From Escherichia coli (GTDB taxonomy: Bacteria; Pseudomonadota; Gammaproteobacteria; Enterobacterales; Enterobacteriaceae), in assembly GCF_024223415.1 (NCBI RefSeq), contig NZ_CP100500.1: 64,000 bases of DNA; one strand, given 5' to 3'. The translations under genes and the position numbers were made by a program. Under the pieces are notes generated by a model. The model saw only the letters and a program-made list of their open reading frames with translations, did no database searches and had not been told where the DNA came from. This document shows positions 15,351 to 37,312 of this stretch, piece after piece (positions within the stretch are counted from its first letter, which is position 1; every line of letters starts with the position of its first letter).

Positions 15351-16196
15351 ATGACGCCCATTCTGAATCACTATTTTGCCCGTATTAACTGGTCGGGAGC
15401 TGCTGCGGTCAATATTGATACGCTTCGTGCATTGCACCTGAAACACAATTGCACCATTCCGTTTGAAAACCTCGACGTTTTGCTGCCGAGGGAAATACAG
15501 CTTGATGATCAATCTCTGGAAGAGAAATTGGTGTTCGCCCGGCGTGGCGGTTACTGCTTTGAACAGAATGGTGTGTTTGAGCGGGTATTACGCGAGCTGG
15601 GTTTTCAAGTACGCAGTCTGTTAGGTCGCGTAGTGTTATCTAATCCGCCAGCATTACCGCCGCGTACACATCGTTTGCTGTTGGTGGAGCTGGAAGGAGA
15701 AAAATGGATTGCTGATGTCGGTTTCGGTGGAAAGACATTGACTGCGCCGATTCGTTTAGTGGCGGATATCGCACAAATAACGCCACATGGCGAATATCGG
15801 CTTTTACAGGAAGGGGATGACTGGATTTTGCAGTTTAATCATCATCAGCACTGGCAGTCGATGTACCTTTTTGATCTCTGCGAGCAACAACAAAGCGATT
15901 ATGTGATGGGTAATTTCTGGTCGGCGCACTGGCCGCAATCGCATTTTCGCCATCATTTGCTGATGTGCCGCCATTTGCCGGACGGTGGCAAGATAACGCT
16001 GACCAATTTTCATTTCACCCATTATGAAAATGGGCACGCGGTGGAGCAGCGAAATCTACCTGATGTGGCGTCGTTATATGCTGTGATGCAGGAACAGTTT
16101 GGTCTGGGCGTAGATGACGCAAAGCATGGCTTTACCGTGGATGAACTGGCGTTGGTGATAGCGGCGTTTGATACGCACCCGGAGGCGGGAAAATAA
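15351..16196 (+). CDS. nhoA: Arylamine N-acetyltransferase (N-hydroxyarylamine O-acetyltransferase), 281 aa
   Basis: NAT family sequence with catalytic Cys (RGGYCFEQN); length matches NhoA. Confidence 0.93.
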   Translation: MTPILNHYFARINWSGAAAVNIDTLRALHLKHNCTIPFENLDVLLPREIQLDDQSLEEKLVFARRGGYCFEQNGVFERVLRELGFQVRSLLGRVVLSNPPALPPRTHRLLLVELEGEKWIADVGFGGKTLTAPIRLVADIAQITPHGEYRLLQEGDDWILQFNHHQHWQSMYLFDLCEQQQSDYVMGNFWSAHWPQSHFRHHLLMCRHLPDGGKITLTNFHFTHYENGHAVEQRNLPDVASLYAVMQEQFGLGVDDAKHGFTVDELALVIAAFDTHPEAGK

Positions 16197-30926: not shown

Positions 30927-33900
30927 ATGGACGTCAGTCGCAGACAATTTTTTAAAATCTGCGCGGGCGGTATGGCTGGAACAACAGTAGCGGCATTGGG
31001 CTTTGCCCCGAAGCAAGCACTGGCTCAGGCGCGAAACTACAAATTATTACGCGCTAAAGAGATCCGTAACACCTGCACATACTGTTCCGTAGGTTGCGGG
31101 CTATTGATGTATAGCCTGGGTGATGGCGCAAAAAACGCCAGAGAAGCGATTTATCACATTGAAGGTGACCCGGATCATCCGGTAAGCCGTGGTGCGCTGT
31201 GCCCCAAAGGGGCCGGTTTGCTGGATTACGTCAACAGTGAAAACCGTCTGCGCTACCCGGAATATCGTGCGCCAGGTTCTGACAAATGGCAGCGCATTAG
31301 CTGGGAAGAAGCATTCTCCCGTATTGCGAAGCTGATGAAAGCTGACCGTGACGCTAACTTTATTGAAAAGAACGAGCAGGGTGTAACGGTAAACCGTTGG
31401 CTTTCTACCGGTATGCTGTGTGCCTCCGGTGCCAGCAACGAAACCGGGATGCTGACCCAGAAATTTGCCCGCTCCCTCGGGATGCTGGCGGTAGACAACC
31501 AGGCGCGCGTCTGACACGGACCAACGGTAGCAAGTCTTGCTCCAACATTTGGTCGCGGTGCGATGACCAACCACTGGGTGGATATCAAAAACGCTAACGT
31601 AGTGATGGTGATGGGCGGTAACGCTGCTGAAGCGCATCCCGTCGGTTTCCGCTGGGCGATGGAAGCGAAAGACAACAACGATGCAACCTTGATCGTTGTC
31701 GATCCCCGTTTTACGCGTACCGCTTCTGTGGCGGATATTTACGCACCTATTCGTTCCGGTACGGACATTACGTTCCTGTCTGGCGTTTTGCGCTACCTGA
31801 TCGAAAACAACAAAATCAACGCCGAATACGTTAAGCATTACACCAACGCCAGCCTGCTGGTGCGTGATGATTTTGCTTTCGAAGACGGTCTGTTCAGCGG
31901 CTACGACGCTGAAAAACGCCAGTACGATAAGTCGTCCTGGAACTATCAGTTCGATGAAAACGGCTATGCAAAACGCGATGAAACACTGACTCATCCGCGC
32001 TGTGTGTGGAACCTGCTGAAAGAGCACGTTTCCCGCTACACGCCGGACGTCGTTGAAAACATCTGCGGTACGCCAAAAGCCGACTTCCTGAAAGTGTGTG
32101 AAGTGCTGGCCTCCACCAGCGCACCGGATCGCACAACCACCTTCCTGTACGCGCTGGGCTGGACGCAGCACACCGTGGGTGCGCAGAACATCCGTACTAT
32201 GGCGATGATCCAGTTGCTACTCGGTAACATGGGTATGGCCGGTGGCGGCGTGAACGCATTGCGTGGTCACTCCAACATTCAGGGGCTGACTGACTTAGGC
32301 CTGCTCTCTACCAGCCTGCCAGGTTATCTGACGCTGCCGTCAGAAAAACAGGTTGATTTGCAGTCGTATCTGGAAGCGAACACGCCGAAAGCGACGCTGG
32401 CTGGTCAGGTGAACTACTGGAGCAACTATCCGAAGTTCTTCGTTAGCCTGATGAAATCTTTCTATGGCGATGCCGCGCAGAAAGAGAACAACTGGGGCTA
32501 TGACTGGCTGCCGAAGTGGGACCAGACCTACGACGTCATCAAGTATTTCAACATGATGGATGAAGGCAAAGTCACCGGTTATTTCTGCCAGGGCTTTAAC
32601 CCGGTTGCGTCCTTCCCGGACAAAAACAAAGTGGTGAGCTGCCTGAGCAAGCTGAAGTATATGGTGGTTATCGATCCGCTGGTGACTGAAACCTCTACCT
32701 TCTGGCAGAACCACGGCGAGTCGAACGATGTCGATCCGGCGTCTATTCAGACTGAAGTATTCCGTCTGCCTTCGACCTGCTTTGCTGAAGAAGATGGTTC
32801 TATCGCTAACTCCGGTCGCTGGTTGCAGTGGCACTGGAAAGGTCAGGACGCGCCGGGTGAAGCGCGTAACGACGGCGAAATTCTGGCGGGTATCTACCAT
32901 CATCTGCGCGAGTTGTACCAGGCCGAAGGTGGTAAAGGCGTAGAACCGCTGATGAAGATGAGCTGGAACTACAAGCAGCCGCACGAACCGCAATCTGACG
33001 AAGTAGCTAAAGAGAACAACGGCTATGCGCTGGAAGATCTCTATGATGCTAATGGCGTGCTGATTGCGAAGAAAGGTCAGTTGCTGAGTAGCTTTGCGCA
33101 TCTGCGTGATGACGGTACAACCGCATCTTCTTGCTGGATCTACACCGGTAGCTGGACAGAGCAGGGCAACCAGATGGCTAACCGCGATAACTCCGACCCG
33201 TCCGGTCTGGGGAATACGCTGGGATGGGCCTGGGCGTGGCCGCTCAACCGTCGCGTGCTGTACAACCGTGCTTCGGCGGATATCAACGGTAAACCGTGGG
33301 ATCCGAAACGGATGCTGATCCAGTGGAACGGCAGCAAGTGGACGGGTAACGATATTCCGGACTTCGGCAATGCCGCACCGGGTACGCCAACCGGGCCGTT
33401 TATCATGCAGCCGGAAGGGATGGGACGCCTGTTTGCCATCAACAAAATGGCGGAAGGTCCGTTCCCGGAACACTACGAGCCGATTGAAACGCCGCTGGGC
33501 ACTAACCCGCTGCATCCGAACGTGGTGTCTAACCCGGTTGTTCGTCTGTATGAACAAGACGCACTGCGGATGGGTAAAAAAGAGCAGTTCCCGTATGTGG
33601 GTACGACCTATCGTCTGACCGAGCACTTCCACACCTGGACCAAGCACGCATTGCTCAATGCAATTGCTCAGCCGGAACAGTTTGTGGAAATCAGCGAAAC
33701 GCTGGCGGCGGCGAAAGGCATTAATAATGGCGATCGTGTCACTGTCTCAAGCAAGCGTGGCTTTATCCGCGCGGTGGCTGTGGTAACGCGTCGTCTGAAA
33801 CCGCTGAATGTAAATGGTCAGCAGGTTGAAACGGTGGGTATTCCAATCCACTGGGGCTTTGAGGGTGTCGCGCGTAAAGGTTATATCGCTAACACTCTGA

Positions 33901-33974
33901 CGCCGAATGTCGGTGATGCAAACTCGCAAACGCCGGAATATAAAGCGTTCTTAGTCAACATCGAGAAGGCGTAA
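30927..33974 (+). CDS. fdnG: Formate dehydrogenase-N alpha subunit, selenocysteine-containing (UGA at 31512-31514 decoded as Sec), 1015 aa
   Basis: Tat signal MDVSRRQFFKICAGGMAGTTVAA; the two ORF-track pieces (30927..31514 and 31563..33974) are in the same frame, separated only by the in-frame TGA. Confidence 0.95.
31512..31555 (+). promoter_or_regulatory. Selenocysteine recoding site: UGA plus downstream SECIS-like structured region
   Basis: In-frame TGA inside an otherwise continuous conserved ORF; GC-rich region immediately 3' (exact SECIS fold not computed). Confidence 0.55.
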
Positions 33975-34871: not shown

Positions 34872-35517
34872 GTCGAAAATGATTGTGCGCACCAAATTTA
34901 TTGATCGCGCCTGTCACTGGACCGTGGTGATTTGCTTCTTCCTGGTGGCGCTGTCCGGGATTTCGTTCTTCTTCCCGACGCTGCAATGGCTGACGCAAAC
35001 CTTCGGTACGCCGCAGATGGGACGCATTTTGCACCCATTCTTCGGCATTGCGATTTTCGTCGCACTGATGTTTATGTTTGTGCGTTTTGTGCATCACAAC
35101 ATCCCGGATAAGAAAGATATTCCGTGGCTGTTGAACATTGTCGAAGTATTGAAAGGCAATGAGCACAAAGTGGCGGATGTTGGTAAGTACAACGCCGGGC
35201 AAAAGATGATGTTCTGGTCAATCATGAGCATGATTTTCGTGCTGCTGGTGACCGGGGTGATTATCTGGCGTCCGTACTTTGCGCAGTACTTCCCGATGCA
35301 GGTTGTCCGTTATAGCCTGCTGATTCACGCGGCTGCGGGTATCATCCTGATCCACGCCATCCTGATCCATATGTATATGGCATTCTGGGTGAAAGGATCG
35401 ATTAAAGGGATGATCGAAGGGAAGGTGAGCCGTCGCTGGGCGAAGAAACATCATCCACGCTGGTATCGTGAAATCGAGAAGGCAGAAGCGAAAAAAGAGA
35501 GTGAAGAAGGGATATAA
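34864..35517 (+). CDS. fdnI: Formate dehydrogenase-N gamma subunit (cytochrome b556), 217 aa
   Basis: Start refined to ATG 34864 ([19 protein letters not shown]...), overlapping the fdnH 3' end; heme-binding membrane protein. Confidence 0.93.
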
Positions 35518-35590
35518 TCTCTTTTGAACTTTAAGCTGAAAATGGCGCTGTAAAAGGCGCCATATTGTAGACAACGTGGGCTTTGTTCAT

Positions 35591-35688
35591 GCCGGATGCG
35601 GCGTGAACGCCTTATCCGGCCTACAAACCGTTCAAATCCAATAGATTGCAGTGAACGTGTAGGCCTGATAAGCGTAGCGCATCAGGCA
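35591..35688. repeat. REP/BIME element (two REP units) downstream of fdnI
   Basis: gccggatgcggcgtgaacgccttatccggcctac ... gtaggcctgataagcgtagcgcatcaggca. Confidence 0.6.
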
Positions 35689-35738
35689 ATGTTGCGTTTG
35701 TCATCAGTTTCAAATGGCGCTTTATAAGGTGCCATTTT

Positions 35739-36023
35739 TTATTGCGTAACCAGACGGCGTAATCGCGACACATCCACCGTTTTTTCAGCCTCTGCCAGAC
35801 TCCAGGCGTTTTGCAGATTCAGCCACATTTGCGGCGAACTGCCGATCACCACGGAAAGTTTAATTGCCATTTCTGGCGTCAAAGCTGCTTTTCCGGTCAG
35901 CAATCGGCTTGCCGTTGAGGGCGCAATTTCCATTGCTCTGGCAAACTCGCGCAGGCTGACATTAAGTTCGTCCAGTGATTCCTGAATAATGTCCCCCGGG
36001 CGGGGATGATTGGCCATTTTCAT
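35739..36023 (-). CDS. yddM: HigA-like HTH (XRE-family) antitoxin homolog, 94 aa
   Basis: Start chosen at ATG 36021-36023 ([49 protein letters not shown]...); the frame is open a further 26 codons upstream, so start is uncertain. Confidence 0.8.
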
Positions 36024-36168
36024 TAGTGTCTTTACTCTCAGTAGCGTTCCTTCTCTGGGAACACTATCATTATTGTTCCTTCCTACGCAACAATAATCCA
36101 TCTAGCCATTTCATGTTGGAGAGTGTGCGATGCTGCGACCCGAACATGGGAGTCGCAGCAAAGGCCTC

Positions 36169-37179
36169 TTAGCGGCGGAAATCAATCACCATGCGGCCAC
36201 GGATTTTGCCTTCTTCCATCTCGGTAAAGATGGTGTTGATGTCCGCTAACGGACGCAGGGCGACTTTCGGCACCACTTTGCCTTCGGCGGCAAACTGGAA
36301 GGCTTCAGTTAGATCCTGGCGCGTGCCGACCAGCGAACCGACCACTTCAATGCCATCCAGCACAAGACGTGGGATATCCAGGCTCATAGACTCCGGCGGC
36401 AGACCGACAGCCACAACACGACCGCCTGCACGGACAGCATCAACTGCCGAGTTAAACGCAGCTTTAGCTACTGCTGTTACCACCGCAGCGTGAGCGCCAC
36501 CGGTTTTCTCCTGCACAATTTTGGCGGCGTCTTCGGTGCGTGAGTTAATCGCTAAATCTGCACCCATTTCGGTTGCCAGTTTTAACTGCTCATCATTGAC
36601 ATCAATGGCGATCACTTTGGCGTTAAAGACATTCTTCGCGTATTGCAGGGCGAGGTTACCCAGACCGCCAAGACCGTAGATAGCAATCCACTGCCCGGGA
36701 CGAATTTTTGACAGCTTAACGGCTTTGTAGGTGGTGACCCCCGCACAGGTAATGCTGCTGGCCGCCGCCGAGTCCAGACCATCTGGCACTTTTACCGCGT
36801 AATCGGCGACCACGATGCACTCTTCCGCCATCCCGCCATCAACGCTGTATCCGGCATTTTTAACTGAACGGCAGAGCGTTTCGTTACCACTGTTACAGTA
36901 TTCGCAATGACCGCATCCTTCGTAAAACCACGCCACGCTGGCACGATCGCCTGGTTTTAATGAGGTGACACCTGGGCCAACTTCTGCCACCACACCGATG
37001 CCTTCATGGCCCAGAATTACGCCGGTTTTGTCACCAAAATCGCCATTCTTAACATGAAGATCGGTATGACATACACCACAACACTCCATTTTCAGCAGGG
37101 CTTCGCCATGTTTCAGTGAGCGCAGTGTTTTATCCGTAACGTCAACATGATGATCCTTCGTAACAACTGCAGCCTTCAT
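36169..37179 (-). CDS. adhP: Zn-dependent alcohol dehydrogenase, propanol-preferring, 336 aa
   Basis: [19 protein letters not shown]...; GHEGIG and CGVCHTD zinc motifs; AGGAGG RBS. Confidence 0.95.
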
Positions 37180-37312
37180 AGTTCCTCCTTTTCGGATGAT
37201 GTTCTGCATAGCAGGTGAGGCAAATGAGATTTATTCGCCACTACCCAGTATGGATGAGATCTGAAAAAGGGAGAGGGAAATTGCCCGGTAGCCTTCACTA
37301 CCGGGCGCAGGC

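Follow-up and report, generated by a model that had tools for sequence, protein, structure and literature searches.

YddM of Escherichia coli is a HigA antitoxin, the surviving half of an old chromosomal HigB-HigA pair

Introduction

Between adhP and fdnI, the Escherichia coli strain studied here carries yddM, a gene for a HigA-like antitoxin beside which no toxin gene is found, and the question raised by this locus is where the partner went and why the antitoxin stayed. A first-pass annotation of the 64,000-nucleotide stretch of DNA analysed here (hereafter the window) proposed that yddM may be an orphan antitoxin retained as a regulator or the remnant of a decayed toxin-antitoxin pair, and gave its start codon as ambiguous between products of 94 and 120 aa. 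In this work, we address these alternatives by profile and structure comparisons, by the inspection of the same site in 5426 complete E. coli genomes and in related genera, and by the analysis of the control region and of polymorphism in yddM.

Results

Organization of the locus

The window belongs to E. coli, and a 1-kb query around yddM displayed 100% identity to strain SCU-316 and 96-98% to most others. The genes are ordered fdnGHI (plus strand), yddM, adhP and maeA (all three on the minus strand); the adhP stop codon occupies 36169-36171, and a spacer of 145 bp (36024-36168) separates adhP from yddM. The elements at this locus are the following:

35739-36023, minus strand: yddM coding sequence (94 aa, RefSeq WP_000781370.1), a HigA-family antitoxin with an XRE-type HTH
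35712-35737, no strand assigned: hairpin at the yddM stop codon (inverted repeat I3), with an 11-bp stem followed by a T run, terminator-like on the plus strand
35585-35702, no strand assigned: REP/BIME palindromic elements of the fdnI-yddM interval (inverted repeats I1 and I2)
36131-36160, minus strand: adhP 3' stem-loop (inverted repeat I6), with 9-bp perfect arms, -22.9 kcal/mol and z -3.06

The region 3' of yddM (35518-35738) consists of hairpins and REP-type palindromes (inverted repeats I1-I4), in agreement with the fdnI terminator/REP region that the first-pass annotation had placed downstream of the gene, and the hairpin at 35712-35737 probably acts in both directions. Sub-threshold Rfam matches to naRNA4 and ES036, both REP-derived families, were obtained in the fdnI-yddM interval, and the 1-kb query around yddM found about 39 matching places per genome. 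The length of this interval differs by strain, with about 50 nt in WEC, 221 nt in the window and about 406 nt in K-12, REP/BIME units being gained and lost; an IS200-family transposase gene (tnpA) is present inside the fdnI-yddM-adhP region of some strains. The start of adhP is ambiguous too, with an ORF of 346 aa versus a RefSeq protein of 336 aa (MKAAVV...), the 10 extra codons corresponding to 37180-37209. In fdnG (30927-33974), codon 196 is an in-frame TGA (NQARV*HGPTV), the known selenocysteine codon, hence the ORF list gives only the C-terminal 803 aa of this protein.

YddM belongs to the HigA family

YddM matched the NCBIfam model TIGR02607 ("HigA family addiction module antitoxin") with 92.7 bits, the cutoff being 47.7, over model positions 1-80 of 81, and Pfam HTH_3 with an E value of 9e-10. 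Residues 1-94 are 100% identical to PDB 2ICP/2ICT, deposited as "antitoxin HigA", and the next-best PDB relative is HigA of the Proteus vulgaris plasmid Rts1 (4MCX, E 1e-18). A score above the curated cutoff, an XRE/Cro-type HTH with the HigA fold, and orthologues adjoining a PF05015 toxin gene (see below) place YddM within the HigA family. The XRE-type HTH typical of HigA antitoxins, originally recognized from the letters alone, was therefore corroborated, and profile searches assigned YddM to no non-antitoxin HTH family.

The window lacks a toxin gene

The coding capacity of the 145-bp spacer is at most 48 aa, versus 92 aa for the toxin encoded in other strains. Small ORFs around yddM matched no Pfam family, and tblastn of E. 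coli and P. vulgaris HigB against the whole 64-kb window gave nothing significant (best E = 0.22). One full-length tblastn match with 26% identity (15588-15848, E = 0.77) was rejected because it falls within a 281-aa ORF whose frame it shares. Consequently, the window contains no complete higBA module, HigB coding capacity being found neither in the spacer nor elsewhere in the 64 kb. The earlier statement that the 145 bp up to adhP harbor no HigB/RelE-like ORF holds, and the small toxin ORF that the first-pass annotation conceded it might have missed was found neither among the small ORFs by Pfam nor over the 64 kb by tblastn. The same annotation proposed looking for a cognate toxin elsewhere in the genome. 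At the DNA level, a sensitive blastn search (~65-70%) recovered chromosomal copies of the toxin gene only in the same ~1330 genomes that carry it beside yddM, plus 24 distant plasmid copies, and no DNA-level paralogue was found on the chromosomes of toxin-less genomes.

A higB gene occupies this site in other genomes

In E. coli MS1050, adhP and yddM are separated by a 279-nt gene annotated as "RelE/ParE family toxin", whose end shares 1 nt with the yddM ATG. Its 92-aa product matches Pfam PF05015 (HigB-like toxin) over its full length with 64.4 bits, and P. vulgaris HigB with an E value of 8e-32; H54, D90, Y91 and H92, which we take to be the catalytic residues of P. vulgaris HigB, are conserved in every intact full-length toxin examined. 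This gene was detected in 1331 of the 5426 complete E. coli genomes (~25%), always at the yddM locus, in strains that include MS1050, UM146, Nissle 1917, CFT073, NC101 and ST95 strains, the CFT073 assembly carrying a 279-bp copy with 97.8% identity.

An outgroup scan using one genome per species revealed the intact higB-yddM pair adjoining fdnI in E. albertii, three cryptic or divergent Escherichia genomes and about 12 Citrobacter species, as well as in Pluralibacter, one Enterobacter sp. and "Enterobacteriaceae bacterium 89"; adhP is also adjacent to the pair in the Escherichia loci and in two Citrobacter. This synteny indicates that the pair is ancestral at the site and that the toxin-less state is derived. 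The suspicion of a decayed toxin-antitoxin pair is thus confirmed by a HigB gene that still stands at the exact position in about 25% of E. coli and in outgroup genera, and yddM is a genuine HigA antitoxin gene, the surviving half of an old chromosomal HigB-HigA pair. Both proteins are unusually strongly conserved across species (E. albertii versus E. coli). In E. albertii NBRC 107761, HigB and YddM are 100% identical to those of MS1050, with 10-11 synonymous differences per gene.

Toxin loss with antitoxin retention has recurred independently across lineages. In the ST131 strain 5392 and in Iso00225, a 1-nt deletion after higB codon 32 leads to a stop at codon 36 and yddM is intact; this frameshift occurs in the sampled ST131 strains and in further sampled genomes, amounting to about 40% of the toxin-bearing genomes of spread samples. 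The antitoxin is likewise retained in Citrobacter sp. FP75, where the toxin has an internal deletion, in C. portucalensis and one Xenorhabdus, with toxin frameshifts, and in Chimaeribacter californicus, in which a 5' deletion has left only the last ~14 toxin codons.

Haplotypes and the deletion of higB

Almost all of the 5426 genomes correspond to one of three haplotypes: the toxin-bearing one (1331 genomes), the window-type toxin-less spacer (3017 genomes, including K-12 and typical O157:H7), and a second toxin-less haplotype (~1061 genomes, including strain WEC, O104:H4 and O111:H8, the latter two being serotypes of phylogroup B1). The two toxin-less types differ by point changes and by the exact reverse-complementation of an 11-nt loop in operator O1 (see below); they have in common a short distal upstream segment and the 5'UTR, and therefore descend from a single deletion event. 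In alignments with toxin-bearing alleles, the entire toxin ORF is absent from the window, and two segments mark the place of the loss:

36023-36028, minus strand: CAC TAA, probable relic of the higB His92 codon and stop, overlapping the yddM ATG by 1 nt
36024-36045, minus strand: remodelled 5'UTR/deletion scar, without the higB Shine-Dalgarno AAGGA and start codons

The sequence at this point is ...TAT CAC TGA TG in toxin-bearing alleles, CAC TGA TG in WEC and strain 142, and CAC TAA TG in the window; judging from these sequences, CAC TAA before yddM is probably the last codon and stop of the deleted higB. A weak Shine-Dalgarno-like TAAAGA is located 5 nt before the yddM ATG. The deletion junction is ambiguous, as it may be reconstructed either as a 279-nt loss through ATGAA microhomology or as an in-frame 255-nt loss between the His7 and His92 CAC codons, and affine-gap global alignments place it differently depending on the parameters. 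The 255-nt reading, itself ambiguous, would need a second small deletion to account for the subsequent loss of the higB start codons.

Upstream, the toxin-less haplotype has 38 unrelated nt where 87 nt separate the adhP hairpin from O1 in toxin-bearing alleles, the adhP 3' stem-loop being the upstream edge of the difference, right after which the alignments diverge. Neither these distal 38 nt nor the toxin-less 5'UTR can be obtained from toxin-bearing sequence by simple deletion. Comparison of the toxin-less upstream segment with the toxin-bearing allele on both strands (k-mer and dot analyses) showed only chance-level 7-mers, and a blastn search of plasmids for a donor segment returned E. coli records only, i.e., chromosome-sized entries and a few plasmids with the same E. 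coli sequence.

The O157:H7 strain TR01 (NZ_CP033605.1) was considered as an intermediate allele and discarded as a probable assembly artefact. Its spacer (1101-1247, equivalent to window 36024-36168) has 145 nt, the same length as in the window, and is unique among the 5426 genomes; the 33 nt that follow the adhP hairpin are of the toxin-bearing type, as are the 45 nt that precede yddM, with the toxin 3' end among them, and the central 29-nt palindrome alone is window-type. This mosaic looks like the product of reference-guided assembly or polishing.

Predicted promoter and operators

Four elements were recognized on the minus strand between the scar and the distal segment:

36046-36062, minus strand: predicted operator O2, a 17-bp palindrome GTTCC-N7-GGAAC over the predicted transcription start
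36061-36069, minus strand: predicted extended -10 TGaTAGTGT, assigned by eye, with an 18-nt spacer from TTGCGT
36075-36091, minus strand: predicted operator O1, a 17-bp palindrome GTTGC-N7-GGAAC overlapping the predicted -35
36085-36090, minus strand: predicted -35 TTGCGT, assigned by eye

From their sequence, TTGCGT and TGaTAGTGT would make a plausible extended -10 promoter, in which O1 would cover the -35 and O2 the start site. A strict sigma-70 scan of 35500-36300 reported no promoter at threshold; the by-eye assignment agrees with an RpoD genomic SELEX site between adhP and yddM in K-12 (PMC3946193). The pattern GTTSC-N7-GSAAC has two matches in the 64 kb, namely O1 and O2, with 0.31 expected and at least two found in 4 of 100 shuffles. 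The four operator half-sites are invariant in the Escherichia, Citrobacter, Pluralibacter and Enterobacter alignments and in all E. coli haplotypes, where a common layout is kept, composed of GTTGC-N7-G(G/C)AAC (O1), a TAATGATAGT-like block and GTTCC-N7-GGAAC (O2), with freely varying spacers between half-sites; the block AACAATAATGATAGTGTTCC at the -10 is conserved across genera, and 19 of its 20 positions are identical to toxin-bearing alleles. Given two conserved palindromes at the promoter, YddM is predicted to bind O1 and O2 and to repress its own transcription. ChIP-exo peaks with a palindromic motif are reported for YddM in K-12 (PMC6237786).

A perfect 9-bp inverted repeat, ATTATTGTT/AACAATAAT (36069-36077 / 36089-36097), encloses the 11-nt loop of O1. 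In the second toxin-less haplotype (~1061 genomes), this loop is exactly reverse-complemented, by which the half-sites are swapped and the putative -35 is changed; the inversion is a small polymorphism that preserves the palindrome. In K-12, a MazF-regulon study lists yddM as a transcript whose start codon has an ACA at 6 nt on its 5' side (PMC5001579). The window presents this ACA as well (36026-36028), so that MazF cleavage could yield a near-leaderless yddM mRNA.

The yddM start codon

The longest yddM ORF reaches the ATG at 36101 (36099-36101) and would encode 120 aa, so that the start ambiguity was real at the ORF level; it is settled in favor of the 94-aa product by the profile alignment, the crystallised protein, the stop/start overlap with the toxin gene and the position of the promoter. 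The additional segment is:

36024-36101, minus strand: spurious N-terminal extension of the 120-aa ORF, corresponding in fact to the 5'UTR, operators and promoter

TIGR02607 aligns to residues 29-107 of the 120-aa ORF and leaves the first 28 residues uncovered, and the crystallised protein has 94 aa. In the toxin-bearing loci sampled from the different genera, the toxin stop consistently overlaps the yddM ATG, and the position of the extension is occupied by higB in a different frame. Furthermore, the 26 extra codons coincide with the operators and promoter; the O1 inversion alters their sequence, and an allele with a 28-nt deletion (see below) has them out of frame. The upstream ATG (36099-36101) lies 5' of the predicted -35. 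The correct start is that of the 94-aa protein, the 120-aa ORF being spurious.

Conservation of yddM

A full-length yddM is present in 5408 of the 5426 genomes (99.7%), about 75% of genomes being devoid of the toxin. Among 15 intact alleles, representing all haplotypes and E. albertii, the 30 polymorphic nucleotide sites are all synonymous, with 0 amino-acid changes. The toxin-less alleles alone display 11 synonymous and 0 non-synonymous changes, with a chance probability of ~1e-7 when ~76% of sites are non-synonymous, and the K-12 and E. albertii genes differ by 13 synonymous and 0 non-synonymous changes over ~68.5 synonymous and 213.5 non-synonymous sites. These data show that yddM is under strong purifying selection, part of whose signal may be imported from toxin-bearing backgrounds: the yddM of the window is nucleotide-identical to that of the toxin-bearing MS1050, which indicates that alleles recombine across backgrounds.

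Rare exceptions were also found. In AST215, a 28-nt deletion (window ~36047-36075) between AAGGAAC direct repeats fuses O1 to O2 with loss of the -10; WP4-S18-ESBL-07 carries the same 28-nt deletion together with the R40* nonsense codon in yddM, which suggests that yddM decays once its promoter is lost; and in one strain yddM is truncated by TnAs1. These alleles indicate that yddM is dispensable. In K-12, the Keio deletion of yddM is viable and the uncomplemented mutant is hypersusceptible to epetraborole (PMC12457515), and genetic interactions of yddM with stress regulators have been reported (PMC9283627).

Discussion

With the integration of these findings, we consider it very probable that yddM is the HigA gene of an ancestral higB-higA module whose toxin was deleted and whose antitoxin was kept as a stand-alone DNA-binding regulator. 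The data show that an ancient chromosomal module of the P. vulgaris Rts1 type resides at the adhP-fdnI site of Escherichia, Citrobacter and allied genera, and that nearly the whole 279-nt higB was deleted in the lineage of the window strain, together with K-12 and O157:H7, at most the last codon and stop being left. The higB ribosome-binding site, start codons and distal upstream sequence were lost or replaced, and the promoter core, i.e., two palindromes GTT(G/C)C-N7-G(G/C)AAC bracketing a -10-like element, was kept. Under the proposed mechanism, a YddM dimer would bind O1 and O2 and thereby repress yddM transcription, in the manner of toxin-free P. vulgaris HigA; translation from the ATG at 36023 would give the 94-aa YddM, which would persist as a stand-alone DNA-binding regulator and may also still neutralise an incoming cognate HigB. 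The protein is identical to the partner of intact HigB in other strains.

Of the two possibilities offered by the first-pass annotation, retention as a regulator is favored over passive decay by the near-universal presence of yddM, its purely synonymous polymorphism, the conserved promoter and operator core, and the published K-12 ChIP-exo binding (PMC6237786). Thus, yddM is most likely maintained as an autorepressor or regulator. That the gene is instead a functionless remnant, whose disabling mutations are merely yet to come, agrees with the viable Keio mutant (PMC12457515) and with the rare promoter-loss alleles (AST215 and WP4-S18-ESBL-07, one of them with R40*) and the TnAs1 truncation; we regard it as improbable in view of full-length genes in 99.7% of 5426 genomes of which ~75% are toxin-less, of the 11 to 0 excess of synonymous changes in toxin-less alleles (chance ~1e-7), of half-sites and a -10 conserved amid scrambled surroundings, and of two diverged toxin-less haplotypes that imply long persistence. 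Even less credible, and in our opinion very improbable, is a toxin still encoded for YddM as a small ORF nearby or in trans: some room for it is left by the scope of the searches, which covered the 64 kb with protein comparisons and whole genomes with DNA comparisons, but the 145-bp spacer is too short for a 92-aa toxin, its small ORFs match no Pfam family, tblastn detected no significant HigB match in the window, and chromosomal blastn copies are confined to the same ~1330 genomes.

Another explanation is that orphan YddM is kept mainly to neutralise HigB arriving with plasmids, phages or recombined DNA, and so blocks post-segregational killing, an anti-addiction role that has been proposed for orphan antitoxins in reviews (PMC7354431). 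The identical cognate toxin is still encoded at the homologous locus in about a quarter of the species, and yddM alleles move between backgrounds by recombination; 99 Escherichia plasmid records contain HigB-family toxins; and YddM is identical in toxin-bearing and toxin-less strains, so that its toxin-binding surface is intact. However, the genuine plasmid homologues are all less than 60% identical to the chromosomal toxin, which makes cross-neutralisation hypothetical, and of three plasmid-search matches at >=90%, at least one lies on a chromosome-sized record. Toxin-less chromosomes, moreover, have no DNA-level toxin paralogue, and protection from HigB alone would leave ChIP-exo binding elsewhere in the genome unexplained. 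As the main reason for retention, we find this explanation rather unlikely. A similarly doubtful extension of the regulator reading is that the hig control region was actively rewired after the loss of higB, and YddM domesticated as a stand-alone transcription factor with a regulon of its own. The tentative basis for such rewiring is the erasure of the ribosome-binding site and start codons, the exchange of 87 nt for 38 nt, the O1 arms that now form a perfect 9-bp repeat, and the loop found in both orientations. If true, the YddM regulon would connect with the reported interactions with stress genes and with the hypersusceptibility to epetraborole that the yddM deletion strain displays.

Under the favored reading of a deleted toxin and a retained regulator, the locus offers a clean, well-dated natural case of chromosomal toxin-antitoxin decay, in which the toxin goes first, repeatedly and independently, and the antitoxin and its operators persist under selection. 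Most E. coli have lost the whole toxin gene by deletion; in ST131 it is frameshifted, one Citrobacter has an internal deletion, and a Chimaeribacter has a 5' deletion. For annotation purposes, the yddM start is fixed at 94 aa and the presence of a "HigA antitoxin" without toxin in K-12 is explained. In addition, CFT073, Nissle and MS1050 supply a natural cognate toxin for K-12 YddM, and the operator pair is defined for studies of autoregulation.

Comparison with known systems

An orphan HigA at this locus is essentially known biology, in agreement with existing database annotation, and constitutes no new kind of system: the protein is named HigA in RefSeq and has a solved structure, and the intact pair of B2 strains is catalogued in TADB entries (PMC11205521). 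According to a review, 2ICP/2ICT correspond to YddM of E. coli CFT073, a HigA-like antitoxin whose structure was solved without toxin (PMC3968373). The CFT073 protein has the same 94-aa sequence as that of the window; the strains differ in that the CFT073 assembly carries the toxin gene, and the related B2 strains UM146 and Nissle have an intact higB upstream, whereas the window strain has none. The CFT073 higBA deletion mutant of Norton & Mulvey was left aside, since it could equally be of the ygjNM-type higBA.

The P. vulgaris Rts1 HigB-HigA system (PDB 4MCX/4MCT and 6CHV) resembles the E. coli module in its toxin-first order, reversed with respect to most type II modules, in the homology of both proteins (E 8e-32 for HigB and 1e-18 for HigA), and in the conserved H54, D90, Y91 and H92 of the toxin. 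In P. vulgaris, a HigA dimer binds O1 and O2 over the -35/-10, and HigA alone represses at least as strongly as the HigB-HigA complex (PMC12266136). In E. coli, a pair of palindromes is likewise predicted to serve as operators around the -35/-10, with a different operator sequence. Unlike the plasmid-borne Rts1 system, the module of E. coli resides on the chromosome, where it is inherited vertically beside fdnI, and its toxin half is deleted in the window.

E. coli K-12 YbaQ (PDB 2EBY, E 6e-9 to YddM) is also a solitary HigA-family HTH protein, whose DNA binding is likewise confirmed by ChIP-exo (PMC6237786); it resides at a separate locus and is only a distant paralogue. With regard to orphan antitoxins in general, one review proposes roles as remnants, regulators or anti-addiction factors, and cites a survey of the Klebsiella pneumoniae complex in which the antitoxin outlasts a decayed toxin, as yddM does (PMC7354431). 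In comparison with such orphan antitoxins, yddM represents a single locus with a documented ancestral state, known haplotype frequencies and a record of several independent losses, and these, along with the retained operators and the resolved start codon, are what the present analysis adds.
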